A stretch of 64,000 nucleotides of DNA from NCBI GenBank assembly GCA_963796955.1, contig CAWCNJ010000008.1, forward strand, positions 32,001-96,000, written 5' to 3'. This stretch comes from Endomicrobiales bacterium. Lineage in GTDB: Bacteria; Elusimicrobiota; Endomicrobiia; Endomicrobiales; JALOBY01. Position 1 is the first letter of the stretch. Each line of letters opens with the position of its first letter. This document shows, in pieces, positions 23,734 through 57,752 of the stretch. The notes below the pieces were generated by a model. It was not told the origin of the DNA and did no database searches. It saw only the letters and a program-made list of their open reading frames with translations. A program made the position numbers and the translations under genes.

Positions 23734-24840
23734 ATGAAAAGAATTCTCATTGTCGACCACTCATCGTTCGTGGGGGGGGCTGAAATATACGCGACGGAAA
23801 TAGCTCGACAAAATCTGTGCGGACAGTATGAGTATGTGTTTGCGGTTACTACACCTGATATTTTGGAAGGGACTGATCTGGACTATGAAATATTCCACAG
23901 CTCACAAATAAAAACACGCAACATCTTCAGGATTCTTGTTTCCGCTTTAAGCAGCATTAAACAATTGCTGGCTATTATTAAAAAAAGGCAGGTTCAAATA
24001 GTTCAGACAAATACTGTAAGGATGCATTTAATTGGCGTTATCGTAGCGATCGTATCACATAAACCACTTGTTTGGGTTATACATTCGTATGATTTTCCAA
24101 TAATGCTTTTTACGTTCCTGTCGTTCATACCTGTAAAAATTGTTTTCGTATCGGAAACTATTAAAACGTATTATGCTTCATTCATGCTAAGCAAGGATAA
24201 GGCTGTTGTAGTATTAAATGGTTTCGATTTCAAAAAAGATGCAACGGCCTCGGGGATACCGGTGGAACTGAACGAAACGTTCTCATGTCAAGGTGAAAAA
24301 GTAGGAATAATCGGGAGAATAGAACATCCAAAGGGTCAGGAATGTTTAATTAAAAGTTTCTCCGTTGTCATTAAATCTTTCCCGAGAGCTAAACTATATA
24401 TTGTTGGAGATATAGGGCCGGGATCTAAAAAGTACTATGAAGATCTAATCTCTTTAATTAAAACACTTAATCTTGAATCAAATGTTGAATTCCTCGGCTA
24501 TGTCGCAAATGTTGCCTATGTTATAGATAGACTCGACTTGATAGTACAATGCTCGGTAATTCCTGAATCATTCGGGAGAGTGATTTGTGAGTCAATGGCG
24601 CAAGGGAAAGCTGTTGTTGCAACCAGAATAGGCGGTTTTTGCGAGCTAATTGACGATAATGAAAATGGGGTGCTTGTGACCCCTGATAATTCGACAGAAT
24701 TGGCAAATGTGATAGTTGATTTGCTCTCGAACAGCGAAAAAATCAAAAGAATGGGCGAATCTGGTATGCGAAAAGTCACCCAAAAATATCAAATACAAAA
24801 TACAATATGTGCGTTTAATAACTTATATGAAAACATTTGA
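23734..24840 (+). CDS. GT4 glycosyltransferase
   Basis: GGAE, GRIEHPKG, PESFGRVICESMAQGKAVVAT. Confidence 0.87.
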   Translation: MKRILIVDHSSFVGGAEIYATEIARQNLCGQYEYVFAVTTPDILEGTDLDYEIFHSSQIKTRNIFRILVSALSSIKQLLAIIKKRQVQIVQTNTVRMHLIGVIVAIVSHKPLVWVIHSYDFPIMLFTFLSFIPVKIVFVSETIKTYYASFMLSKDKAVVVLNGFDFKKDATASGIPVELNETFSCQGEKVGIIGRIEHPKGQECLIKSFSVVIKSFPRAKLYIVGDIGPGSKKYYEDLISLIKTLNLESNVEFLGYVANVAYVIDRLDLIVQCSVIPESFGRVICESMAQGKAVVATRIGGFCELIDDNENGVLVTPDNSTELANVIVDLLSNSEKIKRMGESGMRKVTQKYQIQNTICAFNNLYENI

Positions 24841-28553: not shown

Positions 28554-28569
28554 ATAGAAGAGGGTTTTG

Positions 28570-29871
28570 ATGCAATACGCTTTATATACACTTATCTTGA
28601 TAATACCCTTCCAGGGATATTTTAATTTATACAACCATCTCTCTATCTCTATAGCACAGATAATGGCAATTTTGTTGTTCGTGATTTTGCTATTTCAGCA
28701 AGGTGTGAGGAAACTTATTTTTAATCAAGACATGGGCTTGAGTCTTGCTGTTTTTGTGTTTTGTGTAGCCATGTTGTTTAGTGTTTTTGTTGCCAATAAT
28801 AAAGTTATTGCCATTCAATTCTTTTTAAAATGGATAAGCTTCATATCTCTTTATTTCAGTACAATTTCTATAATTCAGCATTACCAAGATATCAGAAAAT
28901 GTATATTAGTATCTCTTGGTTCCGCCGGATTGATCAGTGTAATTGCTATATATGAATATTTCCAGGGCTTTGAAAAAGTTTTGACTTGGTTCGCAAACAA
29001 ACCGTTGGCTTACAGGATAATGGAACCCGACACGTTAAGAGAGAAAATAGCGCATAATGGAACTAATTGGACGATATCGTCAGGCAGAGGCTTCAACCTA
29101 AGAGCTTTTGGGACGTTTGAAGATGTAATTTCATATAGTGCTTATCTCGGTTTAATTTTGCCATTTGGCCTCCTGTCGTTCGTAGTCAAGCAGGGTAAAA
29201 AAATATTTATTCTGATGTGCGTCGTTCTTGTTTTGATCTCTCTGTTCCTTACATTCACTAGAAGTGCCTATTTAGCTTTTATTATAGCAATGATAGCAAC
29301 CGTTTTTTTGGTTAAGGATATTCTTTTTCATCGGAAATATCTGTTCGTTTTAATCTCGTTCGCGGCTATACTAATGGGGATCGTTGTTTCGAATAAACAA
29401 GTACATGATACATTGGTTTTTCGTTTCGATAAGCCTGTCGTCGAACAGTTTGACCGAAGAGTCTTGTGGGATTGCGCGTTGAAGATAATAAAAGCAAAGC
29501 CGGTGACGGGTGTGGGTTTATCAAATTATGATAGCGGTATAAAAAAATATTGCGCGGTTGATGCACCAGTTTTACCTGCTCATAATCAGTACCTTCAAAT
29601 CGCTGCTGAGTCCGGAATAATCGGGCTGATTTCGTACATGTTCATTCTTTTAGTCGCTTTCAGATATTCCATATATATTTATGTTCATTCAAGAGATCCG
29701 GAATTTAAATTGATCGGAGTTTCGTTTGTCGTCTTGTGTTCTTGGTATTGCGTACAAAGTTTGTTTACTAATTATTTATTTGGGGATAAGTTTTCTATGA
29801 TGTTCTGGATCATGATAGGTCTTATTGGCAGTTCATACAGAGTTTGCAGAAATATGGCTAATGTTATATAA
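28570..29871 (+). CDS. O-antigen ligase-like membrane protein
   Basis: RAFGTF, LTFTRSA, PVTGVGLSNY, AHNQYLQIAAESGIIG. Confidence 0.82.
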   Translation: MQYALYTLILIIPFQGYFNLYNHLSISIAQIMAILLFVILLFQQGVRKLIFNQDMGLSLAVFVFCVAMLFSVFVANNKVIAIQFFLKWISFISLYFSTISIIQHYQDIRKCILVSLGSAGLISVIAIYEYFQGFEKVLTWFANKPLAYRIMEPDTLREKIAHNGTNWTISSGRGFNLRAFGTFEDVISYSAYLGLILPFGLLSFVVKQGKKIFILMCVVLVLISLFLTFTRSAYLAFIIAMIATVFLVKDILFHRKYLFVLISFAAILMGIVVSNKQVHDTLVFRFDKPVVEQFDRRVLWDCALKIIKAKPVTGVGLSNYDSGIKKYCAVDAPVLPAHNQYLQIAAESGIIGLISYMFILLVAFRYSIYIYVHSRDPEFKLIGVSFVVLCSWYCVQSLFTNYLFGDKFSMMFWIMIGLIGSSYRVCRNMANVI

Positions 29872-33770: not shown

Positions 33771-34826
33771 ATGTCATCTACTGAGAAGCTTAAAGCATTG
33801 GACCTGGCGTTGACGCAGATCGAAAAAGACTACGGTAAAGAAGCTATCATGCGTCTTGGTGAGCGGCATACCAAATCTCCGGTCGAGTTCATTTCTACCG
33901 GGGCTTTGCCGCTTGATATAGCTATTGGTGTAGGCGGTATCCCTCGCGGACGCGTAGTTGAGATATATGGCCCTGAATCCTCGGGCAAAACAACTCTTGC
34001 GCTGTGTGTCGTCGCTGAAACACAGAAGGCCGGCGGTATTGCGGCCTATATTGACGCTGAACATGCGATGGATCCGGATTACGCGACTAAGCTTGGTGTT
34101 AAGATAGATGATCTATATATTTCTCAGCCGGATTCAGGTGAGCAGGCCCTGGAGATAACTGAGAAATTAGTTCGGTCCGGTGCTATTGATACCATCGTTA
34201 TCGACTCAGTTGCAGCTTTGGTTCCGAAGGCTGAGATTGAAGGCGAGATGGGCGACTCACACATGGGCTTGCAGGCCAGGCTCATGAGCCAGGCGCTGAG
34301 AAAGCTTACGTCAACGATATCGAAATCCAAGACATCAATTATCTTTATAAATCAGATCCGTCAAAAGATCGGTGTTATGTGGGGAAACCCGGAAACCACG
34401 CCCGGCGGTATGGCGCTGAAATTTTACGCCTCTGTGAGGCTTGATATTAGACGTGTTGAATCTATCAAGAAGGGCGAGGAAGTAATAGGCAATAAGGTTC
34501 GTGTTAAAGTAGTGAAAAATAAAGTTGCGCCACCATTCAAGAACGCTGAATTCGATCTGTTGTTCGGTATAGGTATAGACAAGACCGGTTACTTGATTGA
34601 TATGGGCGTGAACGAAGGTTTTGTTGAGAAAGCAGGAGCATTCTTCTCATACAATGGCGAAAAGATCGGCCAGGGCCGGGACAACGCTAAGCAGTATCTA
34701 AGCGATCACCCGGAGACATATCAGTCAATTGAGGCGGCTCTTCGCAAGAAATTCTTTACTCCTGATGAAAATGGACAGGTACCTACGGTCACAAGAGAAG
34801 TTAAACCTCCGAAAACAAAGAAGTAA
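33771..34826 (+). CDS. recA: Recombinase RecA
   Basis: [53 protein letters not shown]. Confidence 0.98.
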
Positions 34827-41852: not shown

Positions 41853-43124
<1,272 letters not shown>

Positions 43125-43136
43125 CTGCGGAAAGTC

Positions 43137-43183
43137 GAAAACCGTCTTCTGAAAAATACTTTGTTTTTCCGAAGACGGTTTTC
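43137..43183 (+). terminator. Long hairpin / probable terminator after ahcY
   Basis: GAAAACCGTCTTC...GAAGACGGTTTTC inverted repeat; only a short U-tract. Confidence 0.55.
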
Positions 43184-43206
43184 ATGACGCGACATGGGAG
43201 GTCTTT

Positions 43207-44058
43207 GTGAAAAAGTGCGCCTGGCTGTGTGTGCCACTGCTGGTTAGTGTTGTGATGTTTACCGGATGCGGCAAGGGGAATATATTTTCCTGGGCCCATT
43301 CCGCCGGAGACACAAAGAACCTTGATTCCATGAACTCGGACGCGTCAGCCGCCCTGCAGGCCAAGGATTACGTCAAGGCCCTTGACTACTACACTAAACT
43401 GATCGCCGCCGATCCCTCCAACTCTGAAGCGATATATGGCTATGCAGTCGCCGAACTTGCGAACTCGGGCCTGGATGTCGGTGACCTGATAGCAAACCTG
43501 ATAAAGCAACAAAATTCAAATACCCCGGAATACAGGAACCTTGCCCCTGCGATCGCGACGCTGGCGGCCCGTTCAAGTAGTTCATCGCAAAACCTTTTAC
43601 CGCAAAGTATCATCGATAATATTGTCAAGCTGAAGAACGCGATCAACGCGGTGCTTGACATGAGCAAACTGCCGAAGATCATTCTCGGCAGGGCGGATTC
43701 TCGTATCAGCCCGGACAATGTTGATGTTAACATTAACGTTGCCTTCTGTCTGCTGCTTCGCGCCGCAATGACTGTGGAGACCGTCATTAAGTTTGACACT
43801 GACTATAATGCAACCGTTATAACTACTGATAAAGTAGCATTGCAGACGGCGGCTGTTTCAGCCCTTAAGGATATTGCGAGCGCATACGCCAGATTCAACG
43901 TTGTGGTGAAAGCGCTTAACATATCCGGCGACAACTCAATAGTAAAGATCAGGGGGAATATCAGCGATCTATTCAATTCAGCTCAGACAGCCTTGAGAGG
44001 TCAGGGAATTGATTGCAGTGGCGTTAAACTGGATACGGACTATTTGTCTCAGCAGTAA
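43207..44058 (+). CDS. Alpha-helical lipoprotein with TPR-like repeat
   Basis: Lipobox VMFTG-C; DYVKALDYYTKLIAADPSNSEAIYG TPR-like segment; GGGAGG RBS. Confidence 0.75.
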   Translation: MKKCAWLCVPLLVSVVMFTGCGKGNIFSWAHSAGDTKNLDSMNSDASAALQAKDYVKALDYYTKLIAADPSNSEAIYGYAVAELANSGLDVGDLIANLIKQQNSNTPEYRNLAPAIATLAARSSSSSQNLLPQSIIDNIVKLKNAINAVLDMSKLPKIILGRADSRISPDNVDVNINVAFCLLLRAAMTVETVIKFDTDYNATVITTDKVALQTAAVSALKDIASAYARFNVVVKALNISGDNSIVKIRGNISDLFNSAQTALRGQGIDCSGVKLDTDYLSQQ

Positions 44059-44114
44059 CTGGAGCTATTTCCACTAAGCTGGAAGCAGCTGAAACACAAC
44101 TATGAGGTGTTTAA

Positions 44115-45458
44115 ATGAATTTTGCGAAAAAGTTGACAGTTATTGCCGGAGTTGTTGTCCTGTTCAATCTTTCCTTGTTATGTGCCGCTGAAGATCCGGT
44201 GTTCATAAGAGGAACGCGTGTGTTGGGTATGGGCGGCGCGTTCACCGCCATTTCAGACGATCAGAATGCAATGTTCTTCAATCCCGCGGGCTTAACTCAG
44301 CGGCAGGCCGGCCAGTTCACGATGTTTGAAGTGCAGACGACCATCAGCGAAGATACGATGAATTTTTATCAGTTCTATCAGGATAACCAGGATAAGCTGA
44401 AGGATTTTGAAAACCTGAGCAACACTGACAAGGCCGATCTCATCACCAAGATCAACGATACGGTTACCAAATACAAAACACGCATCCGGCTGAGCTTTCC
44501 CGAACCGAGCTATGTTTCCGGTCCCGGCTTTATCAGCTGGGGTGCAGGGATCTTTGATCAGGCTGACATCGGCTTTAAGATGAATCGCGGCGTATTGTTC
44601 CCTACAATAGATATATGGGGAAATGTCGATGTTGTTTGTGCCGTTCCATTGGCTCATCGCTTTGACACGGTGCCGTACATACCGGGCACGCTTTCAGTCG
44701 GCATTACACCTAAGTTCATAGACCGCGGCAAGATCGCTGAATACGGAAAATCCATTCTTGAGTTCAGCGATTTCAGCCCGATAATCCAGCAGGGGCAGGG
44801 ATATGGGTTAGACTTTGGCGCGCTGTACCAGCCAACCGGGCGGTGGAACGCAGGTGTAACGGTCAATGATATCGGCGGCACGCCCATTAGTTACGCCAGC
44901 GTCGATACGACAAAGGATAAAGTAGAAACAAAGATAGACGCAACAACCGGCGTGATCATGCCCAGGCTGAACGTCGGCGCGGCCTATGTGCCGTCAAAAA
45001 TTTGCTATTGGCCCGGAAAGTCTTTCAGCACCAAAGATCGCCTTGTTTTCGCCGCTGATGTTGACGATATGGTGAATGATAAGGAACCGCTTACGGATGA
45101 GTCTGTCTGGAAGAAGGTGCATTTGGGTGCTGAATTCCGTTTTTACACGCTGTCGCTGCGCGGTGGTTATAACTCCGGCTATCCCAGCTTCGGCGTCGGC
45201 TTTGGCATACCGTACATAGGTCTTAACATTGATTACGCCTACTGGGCCGATGAGCTGGGCCGTTTTGCCGGCCAGCAGCCTGAGTGGAACCACCAGATAA
45301 ACCTGTCCATGAAATGGGGCGGCATGTGCGGCCGCGCGTATGGCAGCGATATAAAACAAAAGTGCGAGACCAAAGAAAAGACGACTGATAAACCAATAGC
45401 TCCGAAAGCTTCCAGTCCGACAGAAACGCCCAAAACAAGCGAGCCGACAACCAAATGA
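44115..45458 (+). CDS. Outer-membrane beta-barrel, PorV/TraF-like (FadL superfamily)
   Basis: Signal peptide; GTRVLGMGGAFTAISDDQNAMFFNPAGL plug motif; amphipathic strands (HLGAEF, LRGGY, IDYAY); Pro/Thr/Lys-rich tail. Confidence 0.75.
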   Translation: MNFAKKLTVIAGVVVLFNLSLLCAAEDPVFIRGTRVLGMGGAFTAISDDQNAMFFNPAGLTQRQAGQFTMFEVQTTISEDTMNFYQFYQDNQDKLKDFENLSNTDKADLITKINDTVTKYKTRIRLSFPEPSYVSGPGFISWGAGIFDQADIGFKMNRGVLFPTIDIWGNVDVVCAVPLAHRFDTVPYIPGTLSVGITPKFIDRGKIAEYGKSILEFSDFSPIIQQGQGYGLDFGALYQPTGRWNAGVTVNDIGGTPISYASVDTTKDKVETKIDATTGVIMPRLNVGAAYVPSKICYWPGKSFSTKDRLVFAADVDDMVNDKEPLTDESVWKKVHLGAEFRFYTLSLRGGYNSGYPSFGVGFGIPYIGLNIDYAYWADELGRFAGQQPEWNHQINLSMKWGGMCGRAYGSDIKQKCETKEKTTDKPIAPKASSPTETPKTSEPTTK

Positions 45459-47164
45459 GAGTTAGAAATATCCTGTTTACGTTAATATCAGTTTGTGTCT
45501 GTAGTGCGCCGGTCTATGCGGTGCCCAGCATTGACGGCAGGCCGGGCCCGCGTGAGCATGTGCGCCGCCATCCTAAACATTTGCTACGGAATGCCCCCAA
45601 TACAACGGCAGCGCCTAATGAAATTATCCATCCGGCGACAGGAACGCAAAAAGTCGCGGTGATCCTGGTACAGTTCGCCAGCTCAGGTGGTGCGACCGGT
45701 GGAGATGCGGCAGCGACCTTAAGCAACATAGATATTATCGGTTTCAATAAAACGTTCAGATACCTGAAAAAGTTCTACGCTGAAGCTTCTTATAATCTGC
45801 TCGACCTTGAGATAACCTTCATTACACAATCCAGCAGTTTGACACTGACGGATGTCAGTGGTCTCAGCGGTTTTGAAGCACCCTATACGTTACCGAGCCC
45901 AATGGCGCACTATGGTTCCGATGATGCAGGCCAGGCGGAACTTATCGCTGATTCGCTTTCCCTTGTCGGTTCGTCCGTAACTGCGCCGGCATTCGACGCG
46001 GTGCTTATCGCGCATGCAGGTTATGGCGAGGAGTCCAACACCGGCAATACTGCCGATATCTGGTCTGCGATGACCGGTTTTGGAACGGACGCTTCAGGTA
46101 ATGAGAAAAAGGTCAACGGATTCACCGACGGGGCTGTTTTTCCTGCCCGTGAAGACGGCACTGCAAGCCCGATCGGTGTAACCTGTCATGAATTCGGTCA
46201 TATTCTCGGATTTCCCGACCTGTATAAGACCGCGACAAGCGCAGATCCGACACAAAGTGTGAAAGTTGGCTATTGGTGCCTTATGGATCAGGGCGCGTGG
46301 CTTGGTGATGGTGCGACACCCGCGCCGCCGTCATTGTGGTGCAGGGCTTTGGAAGGGTGGGTCGTGCCAAAACCGCTCTCAAGCCAGCAGATGTTATCAG
46401 GTGTTATCCAGTCTGAAACGAATAACAGTACTGTCTATCAAATCCCCGTGCTGAACAGTTCATCGGAGTACTTCCTGGTCTGTTATTCATCAAAATCAGC
46501 TTACAATGTTGTTCCGCCGGGTCAGGGGTTTTTGATCTGGCACATAGACGAGGGAACCATCGACGGTACCACCTTCGTTCAGCGCCTGGAAAATAATGTC
46601 ATAGATAACTTCTCTCATAACACTGTCGCGCTGGTCACTGCTTCAAATACCACGCCCGACAAAAGGCCCTTTGGTACGGCCAACGACCCATGGCCGGGCT
46701 TGAAAGGGACTTTTACCACACCGGATTCAGATTCATACTCCGGTCAGAGATCCGGCATCGTGATAAGCAACTTTTTAGGAAGTTCTCTGGACTTATCTAC
46801 CAACAAAATGTCCGACAAGGTCGGTTTTGCAGGACTCTTCAACTATCCGAATCCTGCCGGTGCAGGATATAACTCGGGCGCGTCGGGTATCCTTACCACA
46901 TTCGCAATGCAATATACGCGCCCGCCAAGGACCATGTCTCTGGATATCTATACACTGTCCGGCGAACATGTACGAAGTATCAAAACCGGCGATATAAAAC
47001 CGCCTCAGCGCTCGCTAAATCCGAACAACGATTTTAAGTGGGTTTATGAGTATGGGTGGGACGGTAGAAATGATTCCGGCGACAACGTAGCGCCCGGTGT
47101 ATACATATACCGTGCTACGGGGGACGATGCTATCAAGCTCGGCAGGATGGCGGTGGTTCGTTAG
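45455..47164 (+). CDS. M6 family (immune inhibitor A-like) metalloprotease with C-terminal T9SS type A-like domain
   Basis: Signal peptide; AHAGYGEE, CHEFGHILGFPDLY, WCLMDQGAW; C-terminus NYPNP...IYTLSG...WDGRNDSG..VAPGVYIY...RMAVVR. Confidence 0.85.
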   Translation: MRVRNILFTLISVCVCSAPVYAVPSIDGRPGPREHVRRHPKHLLRNAPNTTAAPNEIIHPATGTQKVAVILVQFASSGGATGGDAAATLSNIDIIGFNKTFRYLKKFYAEASYNLLDLEITFITQSSSLTLTDVSGLSGFEAPYTLPSPMAHYGSDDAGQAELIADSLSLVGSSVTAPAFDAVLIAHAGYGEESNTGNTADIWSAMTGFGTDASGNEKKVNGFTDGAVFPAREDGTASPIGVTCHEFGHILGFPDLYKTATSADPTQSVKVGYWCLMDQGAWLGDGATPAPPSLWCRALEGWVVPKPLSSQQMLSGVIQSETNNSTVYQIPVLNSSSEYFLVCYSSKSAYNVVPPGQGFLIWHIDEGTIDGTTFVQRLENNVIDNFSHNTVALVTASNTTPDKRPFGTANDPWPGLKGTFTTPDSDSYSGQRSGIVISNFLGSSLDLSTNKMSDKVGFAGLFNYPNPAGAGYNSGASGILTTFAMQYTRPPRTMSLDIYTLSGEHVRSIKTGDIKPPQRSLNPNNDFKWVYEYGWDGRNDSGDNVAPGVYIYRATGDDAIKLGRMAVVR

Positions 47165-47170
47165 ATGTGT

Positions 47171-48250
47171 CTAACGCTGTACTCTTTTCAGCATGAATAA
47201 TCCAAAAACCGCGAATATGATATTCGCCAGCCAGGCGGCGAATAGCGGCGAAATGAATTTGTTTTCTCCCAGAGACTGTGCTATCGCCTGAACCCCCCAA
47301 TAAATAAACGCGAAAATAAGAGCGAACGTAAAGCTCAGCACCTTGCTATGCCTGCCGCCCAGGCCTATGGCGAACGGTATGCCTATCATGATCACCACGA
47401 TATGGCTGCACACCGAGGCCCAGCGGGAATAAAATTGTATCTCTTCCTTCTCCGACGGCGCGCCAACCGCTTTTAATTTTTTTATAAGGTCCAGCATCAT
47501 GGGCGAGGTCATCTGCTCGGGGCGCGTTCTGTTGATCGCAAAATCAGCGGGCTTAAAAGATATCGGTATTACTGCATCTATGAACGGCGCTTCGTTCACG
47601 CCGCTTACCGAATAGGTCCGTAGCACGCCGTTATGAGCCGTCCAAACTCCGTTGTTAAGTTCTGCCGATTCAGCAACTACCTGCCTGGTCAAGTGAAAAT
47701 TTTCGTCAAAATAGTCGATCACGATATTGTTGAGCCTGTTTTTGTCCACCAGCAGGGATCCCGCCGTCATCCTGGCGTGTTCCGATGGAAGGGAAACAAC
47801 AAAATCGTAATAATCATTGCGTATTTTCTGCGGTTCCTTGCGTATCGTTGCCCGCACTTGTTCCGCCTTAACTATCGTGAACGGTATCACTGCTTCCCTC
47901 AGCACTATTTCTGTTACGCCGATGCCTACCCCGAGCAGCGAGAATAAAATAAGAATGCGGTACACATTGATGCCGGCCGCTTTTATAGCGGTGATCTCAT
48001 TTTGCTTTGCCAGTTTTCCCAGGGAAAATAAGACGGCAAGCAGCACCGCGACCGGCAGTACCTGAATGATCCACCAGGGCAGGTTCAGCAGAAGATACTG
48101 ACCTACGGACAGAAAAGACGCTTTTGTTTCTATGTAAAAGTTTAGTTCTCGGAAGAATTCAGAGATTAGCACCAGGCCGCCGAATGCTGCCGAGCTTAAG
48201 GCAAGCGGTTTAAGGAACTCCATGATAAGGTACCGGTTCAGTATTTTCAT
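47171..48250 (-). CDS. lptG: LPS export ABC transporter permease LptG-like
   Basis: MKILNRYL, LGKLAKQNEITAIKAAG, SPLFAAWLANIIF; LptF/LptG family, overlapping its partner gene. Confidence 0.8.
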   Translation of the reverse strand: MKILNRYLIMEFLKPLALSSAAFGGLVLISEFFRELNFYIETKASFLSVGQYLLLNLPWWIIQVLPVAVLLAVLFSLGKLAKQNEITAIKAAGINVYRILILFSLLGVGIGVTEIVLREAVIPFTIVKAEQVRATIRKEPQKIRNDYYDFVVSLPSEHARMTAGSLLVDKNRLNNIVIDYFDENFHLTRQVVAESAELNNGVWTAHNGVLRTYSVSGVNEAPFIDAVIPISFKPADFAINRTRPEQMTSPMMLDLIKKLKAVGAPSEKEEIQFYSRWASVCSHIVVIMIGIPFAIGLGGRHSKVLSFTFALIFAFIYWGVQAIAQSLGENKFISPLFAAWLANIIFAVFGLFMLKRVQR

Positions 48251-49338
48251 TTTTTCAGCATGATCCGCCACAGGTACCCGGCGAAGACCAGGGTAACGAC
48301 ATCCGGCAGCCACATGACCACCGACGGAGCGGCAAGACCTTTTTCGCTCAGGTTTATGCCGCTTACCAGCAGGATATAGTACACGAACAAGACGATCAGG
48401 CTGATGCCGAAGCCGATGCCCTTACCGCCTTTTTCCAGGATCAGTCCCAATGGGATGGCGATCAGCGCGAACACCAGCGGCGCGGCGGCAAGCACGTAGC
48501 GCATCCAGTACTCGGTCTCAAGAAAATTGGTCGGCATTTTCTTCTGGCGATACGCGTTAATTTCTGCTCTCAGCTCCCGCGCGTTCATTTCTCTCAGGGA
48601 TTGGCCGAACGGCGTATTTTTGTTGTCCATGTCGATGGCAAACCGATAGGTCTGAAAGTTAAGGTTGACCAGGCTTTGCGGTTTTGCCGGGTTCGGCTGC
48701 TGCCAAAAACCGTTGAACAGATTGAAGACCACCGCATTGCCTTCCAGTTCAACGGTCGCCGAGGTGGCGGTTATGCGCCAGGGCATGCCGTTCTCGTTCG
48801 GGGCGAATTTGTAAATATTCAGGTGCTGCAGGGAATTGTCCACTTTGTTGATATGCTCGACATACAGTTTGTAGTCGCTCAGATTAGTAATCACTTTTTC
48901 TTCAAATTTAACCAGCGGGCTCTGGGCCAGTATCTCGCGGTACATGCCGCGGAACTCTCTTTGTGTCGCGGGCGAGACATACTGGTTGAACAGCACCAGA
49001 CAGGCGCTAAGGAGTATTGCGCATACCACTACCGGGCGGGTTACTGTTTTAAACTTCAGGCCGGCCGAACGGATCGCCGTAATTTCGTTGTCTTCGCTGA
49101 GCCTGCCGAAAGAGAGCAGAATAGCCAGCAGAACTGACATCGGTATCGTAAGGGAAAATATATTAGGCAGGGCAAGACAGAAAAGTTTAACAACGGTCAA
49201 TAAATGAACACCCTTGCCAAGCAAAAGGTTCATCAGCTGAAAAAGCTGGTCCAACAGCAAAATACCGGAGAATACCAGCAGGCCAAAAATAAATGATTCA
49301 GCCACCTCACGAATTACGTATCTGTTAAGTATTCTCAT
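48247..49338 (-). CDS. lptF: LPS export ABC transporter permease LptF-like
   Basis: MRILNRYVIRE, FGRLSEDNEITAIRSAG, MWLPD; start placed at the ATG at 49338. Confidence 0.8.
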   Translation of the reverse strand: MRILNRYVIREVAESFIFGLLVFSGILLLDQLFQLMNLLLGKGVHLLTVVKLFCLALPNIFSLTIPMSVLLAILLSFGRLSEDNEITAIRSAGLKFKTVTRPVVVCAILLSACLVLFNQYVSPATQREFRGMYREILAQSPLVKFEEKVITNLSDYKLYVEHINKVDNSLQHLNIYKFAPNENGMPWRITATSATVELEGNAVVFNLFNGFWQQPNPAKPQSLVNLNFQTYRFAIDMDNKNTPFGQSLREMNARELRAEINAYRQKKMPTNFLETEYWMRYVLAAAPLVFALIAIPLGLILEKGGKGIGFGISLIVLFVYYILLVSGINLSEKGLAAPSVVMWLPDVVTLVFAGYLWRIMLKK

Positions 49339-49347
49339 ATTTGAAGT

Positions 49348-49376
49348 ATTATAACTAAATATATATATATTTGCAA
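49348..49376 (-). promoter_or_regulatory. Sigma70 promoter for lptFG
   Basis: On the minus strand TTGCAA (49376-71), 17-nt spacer, TATAAT (49353-48). Confidence 0.65.
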
Positions 49377-49442
49377 AATTAAGTGGTATTTTCAGGCAAA
49401 ATCGTTTATAATTAATAGGCAGGAACAGCATTACCAAATTAC

Positions 49443-52400
49443 ATGAAACGCATTGTATTTATCATTGGTTTCGCATTTGCATTTCTATGGATTTTGTATC
49501 AGTCCGCAGAATCTCAGTTCTACACCGGCCACCGTGCGTTTTCAGTGCTTGGGCCGGGTAAAGATGCGATAATTGAACAGGCTGCTTCCACCTCGACCGT
49601 AGTAGTAACTTCCACGGCTTCGGTGTCTTCACAAGTTCCATCAAGCACTGGCCGTTACGCGATAGATATCCCAACCACGACGTTATCAGACCAGGCCGGC
49701 GACCAATTCCTGAAGTACCTTGATGACAGTAATTTCTTTCATTATTCAACCAAACGCTGGATAAACCTGCGCACAGCGGCCGAAACAGGCAGGAACCCGG
49801 GAGAACAGGTGATCGTTTCATCGGGCACCAGGCGGGCCCCTCCGCAATTACCGCCCGGCCTTTCCGTAGAGCTGCCCTATGAATCCCAGCTTTCAATATC
49901 GGGCAGAAAAACCATCGGCGTCGGTTACAAAACCACTATGTACCGTTTTCCTGATCCGGTTAAACGTATAAACACGAATGCCATGACCATGGACCAGCAG
50001 CTGCAGGTGCGCATTAAGGGACAAGTGGGAAGAAAGATAAACGTTAACGTTGACTTTGACGATACGACCGCGGACAAACGCGATATTTCCGTTGTGTATA
50101 AAGGCGATCCGGAAGAAGTGGTGCAGGAGGCCGCCTTCGGTGATATCACCATGTCGCTGCCATCAACCGAATTCGTCGGTTACTCCAAACAGCTTTTCGG
50201 CGTGAAGATCGATGCGAAACCTACCAAAAACCTGCACACGTGGGGCTTCTTCAGCCGGACCAAAGGTTTTTCAGAAGCAAAGCGTTTCATCGGCAATACA
50301 CAGCTTAACCGTACGCAGATATCTGATACCTCCTATATCCCGATGAAATACTATAATCTGCTGTTCCCCAATATAGGGAAGGTGAAAACCGGCTCCGTTC
50401 GGGTCTTGCGCGACGACCGTATCAGCACGAACAATAATATCACGACTTCTACCGGCACACTTGTTGAAACGTACCCCGGTAATCTCGGTGCGTCAACAAC
50501 CTATTACGTCGGCGATTTTGACCAGCTGGTGCCCGGTCAGGATTTCACCGTTGATTACGAGCGTGGTTTTATTTTCTTCAAGATGCATTTGAACCCGACC
50601 GATGTGATCGCGGTAGATTACCAGAAAGACGACGGTACCTGGCTCAGCGCCGCTGACGGACTGTTAAAAATTATTAAAGATGAGAACAATAATCCCTCCA
50701 TTTCGACGGAAATGAAGACCTTCTATTCGCTGGGGAATATTAAGATCATCAGGGATGACGGCAGAGGCAATTTCCTGCTGAAGATACAAGACCTGAACAA
50801 CAATACGCTTACCGGCAATATGATCGACAACGGTGACGGCACGTTCAAGACGGTCCCCGTGTATCCAGAGACCAATCCGAACGTACCGGGCATAGTCGTC
50901 GATTTCGATTCCGGAATATTCTATCTCGATCCGCCCAATGGCAGGCCGTTCCATGACGCTCTGTATACCCAGGCCTTGCACAAGTACAGTTTCCTGACCG
51001 AATACCATTACCGTAACAAATTCATTACGCTCCGGCCCGGTATCGTGCCTCAGTCGGAGCGTATCACCTTGAACGGGCGGACGATCACGCGCGATCAGGA
51101 CTACTTTATTGACTATGACGCGGGCCTGGTAACCTTCATTAATGATGGCGATATACGTGAAGATACGGTTATCGACATAAATTATGATTATGCTCCGTTC
51201 GGTTCCGCGGGCGGTTCTACGCTGGTCGGTTTGCGCACAGAACTGGCCGCAACAAAAAATATCAGCCTCGGTTCAAGCTATATTTATGATTTCGCAGCCC
51301 AGTCCGTTGCCGTGCCGGATATTCGCACGACACCCTCTTCGTTACAGGTATGGGAGGGAGACGCGAAGGTTGCCAGCACAAAAGTTCCCGGGCTGCCCTT
51401 GACGGCCGCCTTCGGCGGCGAATATGCCAGCAGCAAAAGCAACCCTAATATTATGGGAAAAGCTATCGTGGAATCCATGGAGGGTGTGAAGCTCGAGGAT
51501 GACGTTTCTTTATATGATCAAAATTGGCATCCTGCCAGCAACCCTTCGGGCCTCAGATATTTCCTTGGCCTCGATCCCGCGAACAGCAGCAGGACAAAGG
51601 ATATCTTCTGGCAAAGCGTGAACGTTCCGAAGAAAGAACTATACCCGAACAACGACCGGCTTACCGGGAACGATCAGCAGCAATGCCTGTCCGTTGAATA
51701 CGACCTTACCCGTTCAACGGAAGTCTCCATTATCCAGCCGATCTCTTCGGTCGGCATAGATTACTCCAAGAAATCATTCCTGGAAGTGTGGATAAACGGC
51801 GACGGCAAAGGCGAGCAGCTTCTGATCAGCTACGGATCGTTGAGCGAAGACGTGGATGGTACGGGCGGAGACCATGGCATGCCTAAGACCGAAGACAAGA
51901 ACCTGGACGGAACACTGAACGCGGGCGAAGATGTCGGCTGGAAATTCATCAATCCGGACGGCACATCCTACCAGGTAGGCAATAACAATGCCAAACTCGA
52001 CACCGAGGATCTTGACGGTAACGGTGTGCTTTCTACCGCAGACCAGGTCGCGGGCGAATTCGGTATGGCGCAAAACGATTATTTCCGTACCGCCACAGAT
52101 GAATCCGGCGTCCCCTATACGGCAGTTACCTGGACCGGCTGGAAATATTTTAAAATACCTCTTAATATAACGCCGGATCAGATGCTGGACTGGCGATCCG
52201 TTAAACAGGTCAGGCTGACCTTGAGAGCGAGCGGTGCTGGGCAGGTCGGCGCGATCAGGCTGGCCAAACTGGGCCTGACCGGTAATAAGTTCGACAATCC
52301 TGTGAGTTCGGTGCTGGACAGCACTATCACGGTGACCGCGATCAACACGATCGACGATGCCGCGGTGTATCCCCTGGGCCAGTCACTGCTGGTGAACTCC

Positions 52401-54905
52401 GATTATCAAAGCTTATACGGCATCACCAGCAGCGACGATCTTTCAACCAGAAAAGAACAGGCTCTTTCCATGAAGTACGAGATCAATGCTTCCAGCGCCG
52501 GTGAGGCCTCGACCAGGATACTTTACGGGCAGCCGTACGACTATTCAAATTATCACAACTTCAAATTATTCGTGTACGCGAAAGATTCTTCCGATACTTT
52601 TTTCATCCAGATCGGTAATGATCAGAACTATTTCGAGTATTCGGAGCCCGTTAACTGGGTCGGCTGGAAATTAATAACCATTCAACAGAAAGATCTTACG
52701 GGCGACTCTAAACCTGACCGGTGGATCTCCAACGGAGGCGCTTCTTCCAGCACGGTGGTGGGCAGCCCGTCCTTTCAAAACATAAGCCAGATTAGACTGG
52801 GTGTGCGCACGGGCCCGGGTGTGCGCAAGGGTGAGATCTGGATCGATGAACTTTTTGTGACTGATACCTGGATCAAGGAAGGTTACGCCTGGCGGGCGAA
52901 CGCCGATTTCACCGTGCCTAACTGGGCTGCTTTCGGCATGAAGCGCAAGCTGATGAACCGTAATTTCGAAACGTTTTCCGCGGGAGTTTATAACCGCGAC
53001 AGTTACGAGGATTCCGGCTATTTGAATTTGAACAAGGTGCCGGGCCTGAACCTGCTGGGCATTAATGTCCCCGTCAATTCAACGTTAAGCAGAAGCATCG
53101 TAACGACTCCTTCCGTCGTGCAGAACCAGGGAAACCTTGTTTCCATACAGGACGAAGGCCGCGTTATAAATTATGCCGGGTCAGCTTCCAGCAATTTAAG
53201 CATAAGCCGCTATTTACCGAATGTCGGAGCAAACTACACACAGGCGATAAGCGATGCCCAGGATACCCACATCCTTCAAAATAACCAGACGGCGACAGCG
53301 AACGCGTCGTATTCATTGCCGATGAAGGTCTTTTTCCTTCCGACGGATGTGGCGGGTGATTATTCTATCAACAGATCCTACCTGTGGCAATGGAAGAAGA
53401 TCGGCGGCACCGACGGCTCGCACGATTCTGAGTTCCTGGGCATCAGCGCACTGGGGAATTATCTTTCTGAGTTCAAGACCAATAACTATCAGTTGTTGGA
53501 TACGAACGAAGGCTGGTCGGCGAAAGCGCCGTTCCAGTTCATAAATCTCGGGAATGTCTCAATGAATTTTTCACCTGCCTACAGCTATAAGCAATCCAGG
53601 GAGGACAATAAGCTCATCAATTCGGTGTTCGACAAAAATAAAAGCCAGTCCGTCAGCGCCAGCTCGTCCCTGCGGCTGGCCCGGTGGTTCGCGCCGAACG
53701 TTTCTTTTACCTCCGTGACCAATGAAACCTACGATATAACGTATGATACGACGATAACACCCGCTAAGCTGCCGTCACAAACAAAGGCCATTGACCGCAA
53801 CGCTGCCACGGAAGTATCCCTGAACCTGAACGCCTCCGATCTTTCCAGCAGCCCGTATTTAAAGTCTCTTGGGTTGACCTCTTCCTTCCGTATGCAGGAT
53901 TCCGATTCTTATGACGGTATACCGTCATCATTTACCGCCATCGGATTACGGACAAAAGACCTCTGGATACGTGATAATCGTCTCGATCTGACGAATTCAA
54001 CGACGAATTTTATCGTGAGATCGGTGATCAGGCATGACGAGATCCGCCTTTCAGGCCGGTATAATCCGTTCGAGGCCCTGAACCTGAAAAACAGGCTTGA
54101 GCCCTTGCGCAGCATAACCACCAACATTACGTACAACGGGATCACCGAACAATCGCTTATCACGGGCACCACCAGCGAATCCCGCACTATCGTGTGGCCG
54201 GATATGGTGGTAGGTATGAAGAGATTGGAACGCATGCTGCACTTGGATCCCTGGGTTACCGACTCGAACCTGAACCTTAATTATCGGAAGAAAACCTCCG
54301 AAAGGGTGATGGTAACCCGCACCGATAGCGTTAACTATGGAACGGACCTGCATTTTTTCCTGTTCAAGAAATATGACCTCGGCTTCAACATGAGCTCTGC
54401 CAATGATGAGGACACGGACCTTATACAATCCCTGATAACCCGCACCGCCAGCAACATGGCCTGGGGCGGTCAGGCAGGCGCTAATATCGGCAAATGGCGC
54501 ATGTCCCTGCGCTACGACAACAGCCAGAATTGGAGCGCCGACGGTACCGGCAAGCTTACCGCCGATATGGTCACGAACACCTATACGTCGAATGTGAATC
54601 TTGATACCACCTTCCCGCGCGGTATCCCGATACCGTTCACAAAACGGATGCTCGCGTTGACGAACAGAATAGTTTTCGGCGCGATATTGAAGTACAGCTC
54701 GACCTCTTCAAGTCTGAATGTGGATACCACGAATAAAGACACCTATTCAGCTAACTTTACGACCGATTACGAAGTGTCGGCTAATTTCCGCGCATCGTTC
54801 GGCCTCGGCTGGAGCATGGTCAAGAACAGGGTGGTTACGGACCCGGTCAACAACGACGACCTGCAGACCCTGGATGTTTCCGGCCGTCTGACGATACAGT
54901 TTTGA
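49443..54905 (+). CDS. SprA/Sov-like large outer-membrane translocon (type IX secretion translocon homolog)
   Basis: Signal peptide; MDQQLQVRIKGQVGRKINVNVDFDD and YKGDPEEVVQEAAFGDITMSLP...QLFGVK resemble the SprA N-terminal region; repeated DY.IDY..G motifs; EDxDxDG motifs; long amphipathic C-terminus ending in Phe (RLTIQF). Confidence 0.75.
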   Translation: MKRIVFIIGFAFAFLWILYQSAESQFYTGHRAFSVLGPGKDAIIEQAASTSTVVVTSTASVSSQVPSSTGRYAIDIPTTTLSDQAGDQFLKYLDDSNFFHYSTKRWINLRTAAETGRNPGEQVIVSSGTRRAPPQLPPGLSVELPYESQLSISGRKTIGVGYKTTMYRFPDPVKRINTNAMTMDQQLQVRIKGQVGRKINVNVDFDDTTADKRDISVVYKGDPEEVVQEAAFGDITMSLPSTEFVGYSKQLFGVKIDAKPTKNLHTWGFFSRTKGFSEAKRFIGNTQLNRTQISDTSYIPMKYYNLLFPNIGKVKTGSVRVLRDDRISTNNNITTSTGTLVETYPGNLGASTTYYVGDFDQLVPGQDFTVDYERGFIFFKMHLNPTDVIAVDYQKDDGTWLSAADGLLKIIKDENNNPSISTEMKTFYSLGNIKIIRDDGRGNFLLKIQDLNNNTLTGNMIDNGDGTFKTVPVYPETNPNVPGIVVDFDSGIFYLDPPNGRPFHDALYTQALHKYSFLTEYHYRNKFITLRPGIVPQSERITLNGRTITRDQDYFIDYDAGLVTFINDGDIREDTVIDINYDYAPFGSAGGSTLVGLRTELAATKNISLGSSYIYDFAAQSVAVPDIRTTPSSLQVWEGDAKVASTKVPGLPLTAAFGGEYASSKSNPNIMGKAIVESMEGVKLEDDVSLYDQNWHPASNPSGLRYFLGLDPANSSRTKDIFWQSVNVPKKELYPNNDRLTGNDQQQCLSVEYDLTRSTEVSIIQPISSVGIDYSKKSFLEVWINGDGKGEQLLISYGSLSEDVDGTGGDHGMPKTEDKNLDGTLNAGEDVGWKFINPDGTSYQVGNNNAKLDTEDLDGNGVLSTADQVAGEFGMAQNDYFRTATDESGVPYTAVTWTGWKYFKIPLNITPDQMLDWRSVKQVRLTLRASGAGQVGAIRLAKLGLTGNKFDNPVSSVLDSTITVTAINTIDDAAVYPLGQSLLVNSDYQSLYGITSSDDLSTRKEQALSMKYEINASSAGEASTRILYGQPYDYSNYHNFKLFVYAKDSSDTFFIQIGNDQNYFEYSEPVNWVGWKLITIQQKDLTGDSKPDRWISNGGASSSTVVGSPSFQNISQIRLGVRTGPGVRKGEIWIDELFVTDTWIKEGYAWRANADFTVPNWAAFGMKRKLMNRNFETFSAGVYNRDSYEDSGYLNLNKVPGLNLLGINVPVNSTLSRSIVTTPSVVQNQGNLVSIQDEGRVINYAGSASSNLSISRYLPNVGANYTQAISDAQDTHILQNNQTATANASYSLPMKVFFLPTDVAGDYSINRSYLWQWKKIGGTDGSHDSEFLGISALGNYLSEFKTNNYQLLDTNEGWSAKAPFQFINLGNVSMNFSPAYSYKQSREDNKLINSVFDKNKSQSVSASSSLRLARWFAPNVSFTSVTNETYDITYDTTITPAKLPSQTKAIDRNAATEVSLNLNASDLSSSPYLKSLGLTSSFRMQDSDSYDGIPSSFTAIGLRTKDLWIRDNRLDLTNSTTNFIVRSVIRHDEIRLSGRYNPFEALNLKNRLEPLRSITTNITYNGITEQSLITGTTSESRTIVWPDMVVGMKRLERMLHLDPWVTDSNLNLNYRKKTSERVMVTRTDSVNYGTDLHFFLFKKYDLGFNMSSANDEDTDLIQSLITRTASNMAWGGQAGANIGKWRMSLRYDNSQNWSADGTGKLTADMVTNTYTSNVNLDTTFPRGIPIPFTKRMLALTNRIVFGAILKYSSTSSSLNVDTTNKDTYSANFTTDYEVSANFRASFGLGWSMVKNRVVTDPVNNDDLQTLDVSGRLTIQF

Positions 54906-54907
54906 TC

Positions 54908-55603
54908 ATGTTAAAACATATCGCTGCCTTATTATTCCCAATCAAATGCGCTGTCTGCGGCAAGCTTATGCCTGCTGACGATACGTACCGGCTCTGCTCT
55001 TCCTGTTTTGACCGCATACGCCCGCTGGGGGAATTTCAGTGTAAGGGCTGCGGGCGCGCGCTTCCGGACGTGCAAAAGTTTTGTTTTGACTGCCTGAAGA
55101 CCCGGCCGGCGCTTATTATCCGGTCATACACACAGTTCAGCGAACCGGTCCGACCGCTGATCCATAAATTCAAATACGGCCGGCAGCCGTACCTGTCGCG
55201 CATTTTGGCCAGATTCATGTTCATCGCGTTCCAGGCGAATGATTGCTTTGCCGGTGTCGATACCATCGTACCGGTCCCCAGCCATTGGAGTCGGCGATTC
55301 GGGCGCGGCTACGACCATGTACAGTTGCTGGCCCGTGAATTTTCGGTCGTTTCCGGTCTTCCTACCCATGATCTGCTGCTCAAGAAACGCCGCACACCGC
55401 CGCAAGCCAAACTCACCCGTGAAAAGCGCCTGAAAAACCTTACGGATGCGTTCTCCGTCCGTGATGGCGGACTGGTTTCGGGAAAGTCTATCGTACTGAT
55501 AGACGATGTCTGCACTACCGGCGCAACGCTCTCAGCGTGCGCAAGAACCCTCCTTTCAGCCGGCGCCGATTCTGTCGTAGGTCTTTCTGCCGCCAGAGAT
55601 TAG
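54908..55603 (+). CDS. comF: ComF family protein (double zinc ribbon + phosphoribosyltransferase)
   Basis: Four CxxC pairs, VPVPSH..R...RGY, LIDDVCTTGATL. Confidence 0.88.
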   Translation: MLKHIAALLFPIKCAVCGKLMPADDTYRLCSSCFDRIRPLGEFQCKGCGRALPDVQKFCFDCLKTRPALIIRSYTQFSEPVRPLIHKFKYGRQPYLSRILARFMFIAFQANDCFAGVDTIVPVPSHWSRRFGRGYDHVQLLAREFSVVSGLPTHDLLLKKRRTPPQAKLTREKRLKNLTDAFSVRDGGLVSGKSIVLIDDVCTTGATLSACARTLLSAGADSVVGLSAARD

Positions 55604-55618
55604 CCGGCTACATTAAAT

Positions 55619-55647
55619 TTGAAATTCTTGAATAAATGTAGTACTAT
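55619..55647 (+). promoter_or_regulatory. Putative sigma70 promoter for gap
   Basis: TTGAAA (55619-24), 17-nt spacer, TACTAT (55642-47); GGGAGG RBS before ATG 55705. Confidence 0.55.
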
Positions 55648-55686
55648 ACATATTCAATATCCGCAACGATGCGGTATAATTATTAA

Positions 55687-56756
<1,070 letters not shown>

Positions 56757-56766
56757 TCGTTTATAC

Positions 56767-56813
56767 ACGTGGCGGCTGAAACAACAATTGTTTCAGCCGC
56801 CGCGTTTTCTTTT
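56767..56813 (+). terminator. Rho-independent terminator after gap
   Basis: GGCGGCTGAAACAA-CAA-TTGTTTCAGCCGCC perfect 14-bp stem followed by TTTTCTTTT. Confidence 0.85.
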
Positions 56814-57752
56814 ATGAGTACTCAAAAGAAAATACTGGTAGTTGATGATGATGACGACATAGCAGACCTGATCAGGCTCACTCTTGAGACTGAGGGTTAT
56901 GAAGTTATTCGCGCGTACGACGGGTTGGATGCGCTTGAAAAGGCCAAACTGCATAAGCCGGCCCTGATCGTTTCAGATGTCGATATGCCCCGCATGGACG
57001 GTCTGGAACTGTTACAGGAGTTAAGAAAAGATCAGTTGTTCCGCCTGCTTCCCGTAATAATTCTCTCCGGCTCAAGAACAGGTCCTCAGGACCGGATATC
57101 GGGCCTGGAAACAGGGGCCGACGATTACATACTCAAACCTTTCCTTCCGCCCGAACTATCTATCCGCGTTAAACGCCTTATCGACCGTACCGAAGAACAG
57201 CTTTCTGTCAGTCCGCTCACCCGGCTGCCGGGGAGCCTTACATTGGAAGCAGAGGTAACGCGCCGGATCAGTGACAGCGATCTTGCCGTGTGTTATTTCG
57301 ACCTCGATCATTTTAAGGCCTATAACGATTGTTACGGTTATAAAAAAGGCGACGAAATAATCAAGGCTGTCGCCAATATCATCGCGCAAGCAAGTGCTGT
57401 GGTCGGGGGACAAAACGATCTGCTCACTCATATCGGCGGAGACGACTTCATATTGATCACGACAAAAAATGCGGCGCAGAATATTTGCGTGACGGTCATA
57501 GAAGAATTCGCCCGGATGGTGCCCGGTATGTACTCCGCCGAAGACGTCAAGAACGGATACATCTCTTCAACAAACAGGAAAAATGAAAAACAAAATTTTC
57601 CGTTAATGACGATCTCGATCGGGATCGTTACGACCGAAAATAGAAAATTCGATCATTATGCACAGCTGGTGGATGTGCTGGCCGAGATCAAGAGATTTGC
57701 AAAAACCATTAAAGGCAATGTCTGGATAAAAGACCGCAGAAAAGATAATTAA
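56814..57752 (+). CDS. Response regulator receiver + GGDEF (GGDDF) diguanylate cyclase-like protein
   Basis: ILVVDDD, VSDVDMPRMDG, GADDYILKPF, DLDHFKAYNDCYG..KGD, HIGGDDF. Confidence 0.9.
   Translation: MSTQKKILVVDDDDDIADLIRLTLETEGYEVIRAYDGLDALEKAKLHKPALIVSDVDMPRMDGLELLQELRKDQLFRLLPVIILSGSRTGPQDRISGLETGADDYILKPFLPPELSIRVKRLIDRTEEQLSVSPLTRLPGSLTLEAEVTRRISDSDLAVCYFDLDHFKAYNDCYGYKKGDEIIKAVANIIAQASAVVGGQNDLLTHIGGDDFILITTKNAAQNICVTVIEEFARMVPGMYSAEDVKNGYISSTNRKNEKQNFPLMTISIGIVTTENRKFDHYAQLVDVLAEIKRFAKTIKGNVWIKDRRKDN

Follow-up and report, generated by a model that had tools for sequence, protein, structure and literature searches.

The closest described counterparts of the locus reported here are the type IX secretion systems (T9SS) of Bacteroidota, whose outer-membrane pore is SprA in Flavobacterium johnsoniae and Sov in Porphyromonas gingivalis. 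T9SS is described as restricted to Bacteroidota, or at most to the Fibrobacterota–Chlorobiota–Bacteroidota (FCB) group, and a 2024 paper gives T9SS genes as absent from non-FCB phyla. Current models, as set out in two papers, hold that a PorLM motor and a PorKN track are needed to pull the carrier and its cargo off the SprA pore (PMC10994853, PMC12635249); the latter has SprF and PorG of Bacteroidota disulfide-linked to GldK of the moving track (PMC12635249). This analysis concerns a 64,000-nucleotide stretch of Elusimicrobiota DNA (the window) on a 564-kb contig of a 2.10-Mb assembly with ca. 51% GC. The region 43207-54905 of the window encodes an 1820-aa SprA-like protein, a PorV-like barrel and a metalloprotease with a C-terminal immunoglobulin-like sorting domain (CTD), and it is probably the outer-membrane half of a type-9-like secretion system that lacks a PorKLMN motor and ring and whose energy source is unrecognised or none. 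No paper was found that ties Elusimicrobia to T9SS, type IX, Por secretion or SprA, with the spelling "Elusimicrobiota" only partly covered, and in publications holding both sets of terms the mentions stand in unrelated passages. On this reading, what is new is a type-9 outer-membrane module with a smaller pore and no detectable motor, ring or sortase, in a non-FCB phylum.

The product of 49443-54905 has a signal peptide and is the sole SprA match in the genome. Its match to the NCBIfam SprA model, TIGR04189, has an E-value of 2.4e-46 and a score of 157.7 bits, and the Pfam model SprA_N (PF14349) scores 24.4 bits against a cut-off of 27. When a family profile (A1) built from 20 members was compared with 177,635 distinct PDB sequences, only the SprA of F. 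johnsoniae (6h3i/6h3j) was matched (E 4.3e-37). The matched segments are colinear – residues 149-269, 520-596 and 820-1179 correspond to SprA 145-267, 701-777 and 1158-1598. The terminal phenylalanine, F1820, is invariant in 20 of 20 homologues. Other searches were less informative: the ESM Atlas returned clusters that are unnamed or only partly labelled SprA_N, the single pore sequence as a query against the genome contigs found no relative, and the NCBI records of the orthologues are named "hypothetical protein".

The protein was folded with AlphaFold2 as two overlapping halves, residues 1-1190 and 701-1820, from 31-sequence alignments (pLDDT 73.6 and 79.7). In Foldseek searches with both halves, ranks 1-4 were the four SprA chains (E 9e-45 to 7e-32, then 1.4e-28 to 1.9e-24; TMq 0.38-0.50), and the runners-up were far weaker (E 2e-9 and 2e-5; TMq 0.07-0.08). 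VIA-align placed residues 145-1189 of the N-terminal model on SprA 132-1563 (Z 16.6, 653 residues aligned) and residues 701-1820 of the C-terminal model on SprA 892-2401 (Z 14.3-14.6, 868-912 residues aligned). The Z-score of the C-terminal half is no higher than that of generic porins and TonB-dependent barrels, but those align over 215-475 residues and only SprA over more than 860. The C-terminal third, which HMMER did not detect, is thus SprA-like by predicted fold. DSSP assigned 37 strands of at least 10 residues outside the region 668-1127, an inserted beta-sandwich; this is not a count in three dimensions, and it is compatible with a predicted 36-strand barrel of SprA size. Relative to the 2403 residues of SprA the protein has 583 fewer, and by the matched coordinates the shortening is dispersed over several of the stretches between segments. 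By profile and predicted fold, then, the product is a true, shortened SprA homologue. A preliminary description of this DNA had claimed an SprA-like 1820-aa protein with a terminal Phe and had made SprA-type modelling the test of that claim; TIGR04189, the PDB profile and the conservation of F1820 bear out the first, and the SprA chains are the only strong Foldseek matches of the two half-models.

The pore is a phylum-wide feature. Its profile was found in 264 of 301 sampled Elusimicrobiota genomes, and in 225 of the 234 of good quality; the genomes without it are mostly small (0.4-1.4 Mb) and of one genus. It is kept in 55 of 89 genomes of one large family (f10) and 86 of 88 of another (f20), and the gene is single-copy. 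Orthologues within the phylum are 30-55% identical, and the nearest canonical SprA proteins only 21-29%.

The host itself is placed by recA (33771-34826), the product of which is 73-97% identical to its 120 best matches. The organism-named entries among these are all Elusimicrobiota, Endomicrobiia, Endomicrobiales or Endomicrobium, and include Endomicrobium proavitum. NCBI taxonomy sets Elusimicrobiota directly beneath Pseudomonadati and outside the FCB group, and the earlier suggestion of a non-Bacteroidota genome therefore stands: the host is neither Bacteroidota nor FCB. Named homologues of the SprA-like protein and of the window barrel (E 1e-50 or better) come from Elusimicrobiota; the exceptions are a few records with no label beyond "bacterium" and one window-barrel homologue record labelled Bacteroidota. 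Recent acquisition from an FCB bacterium, or contamination in binning, would place an SprA gene in this assembly as well, and a low-GC stretch at 12-32 kb of the window is a weak point in favour of such an origin. It is nonetheless extremely unlikely: the GC of the pore locus (0.49-0.51) is that of the whole genome, the 564-kb contig carries the Elusimicrobiota-type RecA, and the orthologues in the 264 genomes are closer to each other than to canonical SprA and stand in conserved synteny.

The features of the pore locus, and the second CTD protein of the window, are as follows.

902-2056, + strand: secreted fn3-domain protein of 384 aa with a CTD and no adjacent barrel (fn3 23.4, CHU_C 21.0 and FlgD_ig 18.8 bits, all sub-cut-off).
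43207-44058, + strand: tetratricopeptide repeat (TPR) lipoprotein of 283 aa (TPR_19 30.9 bits; lipobox ...FTGC).
44115-45458, + strand: divergent barrel of the PorV/PorQ superfamily, 447 aa (NF033709 E 7e-18, 65.3 bits; Pfam TraF_2 32.9 bits).
45455-47164, + strand: M6-family zinc metalloprotease with a CTD, 569 aa (TIGR03296 129.1 bits, cut-off 110.8).
47171-48313, - strand: lptG (PF03739; lptG and lptF score 242.6 and 283.4 bits).
48247-49437, - strand: lptF (PF03739, scores as for lptG), divergent from the SprA-like gene.
49443-54905, + strand: SprA-like giant outer-membrane barrel of 1820 aa, the proposed translocon (TIGR04189, PDB profile, half-model folds).
54902-55603, + strand: comF-like phosphoribosyltransferase (TIGR00201 107.4 bits, under the cut-off; DZR_2; Pribosyltran), overlapping the stop of the SprA-like gene.

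The open reading frames (ORFs) given for 43207-54905 in the preliminary description were recovered, and all of its gene-level observations hold. Its PorV/FadL-type barrel is the 447-aa protein, which matches the PorV/PorQ family model NF033709 below the cut-off. With hhalign, the family of the window barrel (A6) aligned with eight barrels of the same genome that pass NF033709 over 264 columns, with 99.75% probability and E 2.9e-27; at the profile level it is homologous to PorV/PorQ members across the whole barrel. It has an extra insertion of ca. 35 residues after the N-terminal motif and a low-complexity C-terminal tail rich in Pro, Lys and Thr. NCBI names for its orthologues are hypothetical, DUF5723 or TraF. 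In 10 relatives the barrel gene and the SprA-like gene share a strand and are 4-6 kb apart.

The start of the protease gene overlaps the end of the barrel gene by 4 nt. The HExxH motif reads HEFGH at residue 245, and all 10 full-length orthologues preserve HExxH; the product is assigned to the M6 peptidase family and predicted to be active and secreted. Its CTD, ca. residues 455-569 (nt 46817-47161), scores 25.0 bits with FlgD_ig (cut-off 27) and 17.1 with TIGR04183 (cut-off 23), and matches the CTD region of PorU (E 1.8e-6). The window barrel is proposed as the carrier for this neighbouring protease. The comF-like gene is conserved as a neighbour and has no obvious part in secretion. Two further claims, both made as signs of a host unlike Bacteroidota, were not confirmed: the TTGACA/TATAAT promoters are at chance level (19 promoter-like sites in 43000-56000, compared with 14.9 +/- 4.0 in shuffled sequence), and a canonical Shine-Dalgarno motif was not found directly before the ATG of the SprA-like gene.

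The CTD of the protease and that of the 902-2056 product had been described as one domain, and the pattern NYPNP...GxY...VV(K/R) is indeed common to both. The latter protein has a signal peptide; its CTD scores 13.0 bits with TIGR04183, 21.0 with CHU_C (cut-off 27) and 78 with the genome's own CTD hidden Markov model (HMM). That HMM, seeded on the two window CTDs, found 22 proteins in the genome, with every match at the C-terminus or within about 15 residues of it. A simple heuristic gives 16 of the 22 a signal peptide. Among the 20 outside the window, nine pass a Pfam cut-off (CHU_C five, FlgD_ig three, Por_Secre_tail one), and among eight CTDs tested TIGR04183 was over its cut-off in four and TIGR04131 in one. 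The two window CTDs belong to one genome-wide family, other members of which pass the curated cut-offs. One of the CTD proteins is an 8817-aa giant, the ORF at C6:114890-141343. A PorV-family barrel with a TPR tail begins 4 bp after it, and the first 27 residues of this barrel match those of the barrel at C6:173207-174904. Phage-tail-collar-domain proteins are encoded at 1-894 and 2065-2991, on either side of the 902-2056 gene.

Carrier-type barrels are as numerous as CTD proteins. A search seeded with the window barrel recovered 22 related barrels in the genome, two of them FadL-type and one a weak match. A CTD gene lies within 3 kb of 14 of the 22, and within 13 bp for 12 of these; the barrel is usually directly downstream of the cargo gene on the same strand. 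The NF033709 cut-off is passed by 8 of 20 barrels, that of Pfam PorV (PF19572) by three and that of PorP_SprF (PF11751) by two. A TPR domain lies at the C-terminus of six barrels, and one barrel carries a LysM domain. For one paralogue the only PDB match is F. johnsoniae PorV, with an E-value of 1.4e-7. The system is therefore larger than was first seen, with 22 CTD proteins, 22 PorV-related barrels and a pore found throughout the phylum.

Gene order around the pore was compared across 21 loci drawn from numerous families of Elusimicrobiota. The genes lptF/lptG adjoin the pore gene in 18 of the 21, mostly divergently, and comF is downstream of it in 18. Eleven of the loci hold the M6-CTD protease gene and nine the barrel gene; the TPR gene occurs in eight, always immediately ahead of the PorV-like gene. 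The order ahcY - TPR - barrel - M6-CTD - lptG/lptF - pore - comF - gap - pgk is seen again in several families and classes. In the window, a response-regulator receiver fused to GGDEF (56769-57752) is encoded between gap and pgk, immediately beyond the pore locus; one of 20 related loci has a gene of similar size at this position. Of the 41 relatives compared, two (G017 and G040) have no pore, and these have no barrel family either. A reduced 1.1-Mb relative has, at G020:C1:946590-953793, a short SprA-like remnant with two in-frame TAG codons and a PorV-like remnant with two in-frame TGA codons, 7 kb apart, and the locus seems to be breaking down as a whole.

The constant company of lptF/lptG raises another reading – that the giant barrel is not a secretor and works with LptF/LptG in the biogenesis of lipopolysaccharide (LPS) and the outer membrane, its SprA ancestry being a matter of history only. 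A near-universal, single-copy gene has the look of a housekeeping function, a polysaccharide cluster lies just upstream in the window, and LptD is scarcely detectable in the phylum (the Pfam model matches in 9 of 101 genomes, in 4 of them over the cut-off). There is, however, a separate candidate for LptD in this genome, a 679-aa ORF at C8:23776-25815, ca. 6 kb before the window start. Its LptD-barrel and LptA/LptC/LptD_N matches are weak and all sub-cut-off, relatives carry similar LptD-like proteins of 676-740 aa that are over the cut-off, and to judge from sequence it is probably a very divergent LptD. With such a candidate in place, with pore and PorV-family barrels lost jointly in reduced genomes and with a fold that matches SprA over its whole length, the LPS reading is very unlikely; it would also leave the CTD cargo and carriers without a channel.

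The polysaccharide cluster is large (4900-33800) and has the character of an O-antigen cluster, with many glycosyltransferases, a MatE-like flippase, sugar-nucleotide enzymes and two Wzy_C-type proteins (24716-26323 and 28567-29871). GC at 12-32 kb of the window is 0.375-0.41, compared with ca. 0.50 elsewhere, and the low-GC cluster is possibly a horizontally exchanged serotype island.

The motor, ring and sortase of the Bacteroidota systems were sought with GldK/L/M/N and PorU models. None had been seen in the window by the preliminary description; that absence is confirmed, and it extends to the genome, in which none was detected. A canonical T9SS core elsewhere, which would have spoken against a divergent system, was likewise found neither in this genome nor in the phylum. 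GldM was found in 0 of 151 phylum genomes and GldN in 0 of 101, even at E 0.001; GldL was over the cut-off in 0 of 101, with one match of 24.7 bits. GldK was also over the cut-off in 0 of 101, with matches of at most 96 bits in 23; these are patchy, cover only the generic sulfatase-modifying-factor part, and occur in Bacillus and Methanosarcina controls too. Peptidase_C25, the PorU type, was found in only 2 of 101 phylum genomes, and in this genome the PorU model matched CTD regions only, 12 of which scored no more than 34 bits. As a positive control, full-length PorU was over the cut-off in all five Cloacimonadota genomes, which were reached by way of loci L064, L067, L078, L098 and L112; the Cloacimonadota SprA alignment (A3) was used for control genomes only.

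Those five genomes also bear on the opposite reading, an ordinary motorised T9SS in which the PorK/L/M/N homologues have diverged too far for the TIGRFAM and Pfam models. They hold a canonical 2053-aa SprA along with full-length PorU, and the motor models are blank in them. GldL, GldM and GldN gave a positive signal in no genome searched, and the sub-cut-off scores of SprA and PorV themselves attest to the extent of drift in this phylum. Models of the same origin nevertheless still detect SprA, PorV-family barrels and CTDs here at E-values of 1e-18 to 1e-46, whereas GldM and GldN are blank at E 0.001, GldL yields its single match and the GldK matches are generic and patchy; nor is there a conserved inner-membrane or periplasmic gene beside the pore across the 21 loci. 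A hidden motor of the ordinary kind is accordingly judged unlikely. Either the motor models do not work beyond Bacteroidota or SprA systems without a motor are common there, and the claim that the motor is absent is limited to this extent, because the same models give 0/5 in SprA-bearing Cloacimonadota.

A different rotor could also power the system. The genome has three FliF_C-FliG_M-FliG_C fusion genes (C4:176960-178843, C7:7354-8994 and C6:179161-180678) and no other FliG. In each case a CTD cargo gene and the gene for a TPR-tailed PorV-family barrel precede the fusion gene by at most ca. 6 kb, and downstream of one fusion gene are motA and two motB genes, so that MotA/MotB stators accompany a cargo/barrel-TPR pair. 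FliG_C was found in 36 of 101 phylum genomes, but in 0 of 31 in f10 and 0 of 32 in f20, the two largest families sampled, and no FliF-FliG gene is near the pore in the 21 loci. Since f10 and f20 keep the pore without FliG_C, the rotor is rejected as a general energiser, and that it powers the system is quite improbable; at most its role may be confined to certain cargo/carrier pairs of some lineages. Two of the FliF-FliG loci also hold a PD40+fn3 protein and one a 1633-aa protein with a C-terminal TPR match, and on contig C4 a third phage-tail-collar protein (707 aa) precedes the CTD/barrel/FliF-FliG locus.

The reading preferred here remains that of an outer-membrane half of a type-9-like system. 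It builds on pore homology and fold, the family relations of barrels and CTDs, gene pairing, synteny and phylum distribution, all of which are established. In the proposed mechanism, Sec would export proteins bearing the CTD, and the 1820-aa SprA homologue would be the channel through which they cross the outer membrane. Barrels of the PorV/PorQ/PorP families, most of them encoded right beside their own cargo gene, would receive the CTD at the channel and then carry the cargo or hold it anchored in the outer membrane. The TPR lipoprotein, one divergent barrel and the M6 metalloprotease with its CTD would form a conserved core beside the pore, with the protease acting either as conserved cargo or as a CTD trimmer in place of PorU. 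Neither the PorL/M (GldL/M) motor nor the PorK/N ring would take part, and most lineages would also do without PorU. With no motor or ring, the release of carrier and cargo would then be either not energised or driven by something unrecognised. Passage of protein through the pore, the assignment of each barrel to a cargo, the role of the protease and the absence of a motor are the proposed parts of this scheme. The divergent T9SS with a smaller translocon and an unknown energising module that had been suggested from the sequence is supported by the pore homology and fold, the CTD cargo and the carrier barrels.

Several results weigh against this reading. The score of the pore with TIGR04189 is below the 200-bit cut-off, the window barrel scores 65.3 with NF033709 against a cut-off of 90, and both window CTDs are below the curated TIGR04183, CHU_C and FlgD_ig cut-offs. 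The window-barrel profile matched neither PorV nor any other entry in the PDB. The commonest neighbours of the pore, lptF/lptG and comF (18/21 each), are not secretion genes, and the barrel is beside the pore in just 9 of 21 loci and unlinked to it in f10. Missing components could lie outside an assembly that is 81% complete. Finally, the GldK/L/M/N models may be blind outside Bacteroidota: in the five Cloacimonadota genomes GldM, GldL and GldM_1st were 0/5 and GldK 0/5 over the cut-off, and the motor models were also without signal in 14 control genomes.

A broader interpretation is that the SprA pore, CTD cargo and carriers form an old, self-sufficient module that predates the PorKLMN motor of Bacteroidota, that this module does its work without such a motor throughout a non-FCB phylum and perhaps also in Cloacimonadota, and that some pairs in free-living Elusimicrobiota are coupled instead, through barrel TPR tails, to a FliF-FliG/MotAB rotor of flagellar origin. 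This is offered tentatively, as a rather unlikely possibility; if it were true, coupling of carriers to a rotary motor would have evolved more than once.

A phylum-wide pore with carriers and cargo and no detectable motor would, if the reading preferred here is right, mean that the pore works unpowered or that another form of energy coupling exists. An 1820-aa translocon would be a smaller target for structural work, and the system would explain how the many giant surface proteins of Elusimicrobiota are displayed. Cultured members of the phylum exist and Endomicrobium proavitum is among the RecA matches, so the question is testable experimentally.

Measured against the Bacteroidota definition of a T9SS, the system has no detected PorL/M motor, PorK/N ring or PorU C25 sortase and no Bacteroidota/FCB host, with the motor models having no positive control; it has the Ig-like CTD cargo and the carriers of PorV/PorQ/PorP type. 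The closest known counterpart of the pore is SprA of F. johnsoniae (6H3I, 6H3J, 8GL6, 8GL8), or Sov of P. gingivalis. The proteins are homologous and colinear over nearly their full length. Each has a signal peptide and a giant all-beta outer-membrane architecture in which a CBM11-like beta-sandwich domain is embedded, as in the cap region, and each is encoded alongside PorV-family barrels and CTD cargo. The differences are the length (1820 vs 2403 residues), the sub-cut-off scores and the non-FCB phylum of the protein described here, and a setting in which no GldK/L/M/N was detected, PorU is rare and the gene keeps company with lptF/lptG and comF.

PorU is a protease that itself bears a CTD and is associated with PorV. 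The M6 protease resembles it as a CTD-bearing protease co-encoded with a PorV-like barrel, but it is a zinc metalloprotease rather than a C25 cysteine peptidase and may be plain cargo. The SprA systems of Cloacimonadota, within the FCB group, are similar in lying outside Bacteroidota and in having GldL/M undetectable with the same models; they differ in a canonical SprA of 2053 aa with Pfam SprA_N and in full-length PorU in 5/5 genomes. Motor-less SprA systems may therefore extend beyond one phylum, or the motor models are blind in Cloacimonadota.

The type-B cargo and PorP-SprF pairs of Flavobacterium, such as SprB-SprF (PMC12618676, PMC9143113), are like the pairs found here in that a cargo gene is followed or overlapped by its own barrel gene, as in 12 cases in this genome, and in that CHU_C is over its cut-off in five CTDs and PorP_SprF in two barrels. 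They differ in that most barrels here score best as PorV/PorQ and not as PorP, that the type A, type B and FlgD_ig models fit the CTDs roughly equally well, and that six barrels have a TPR domain at the C-terminus and one has a LysM domain. GldK, the track protein to which SprF and PorG are linked in Bacteroidota, was not found here. PorV, the general shuttle of type-A CTDs (6H3I chain F), shares with the window barrel the N-terminal motif and barrel body of the PorV/PorQ family, and one paralogue in the genome matches PorV directly (E 1.4e-7); the window barrel differs in its sub-cut-off score, its insertion of ca. 35 residues and its Pro/Lys/Thr-rich tail. In Bacteroidota, PorV and the PorP/SprF carriers perform the carrying and anchoring role proposed here for the Elusimicrobiota barrels.

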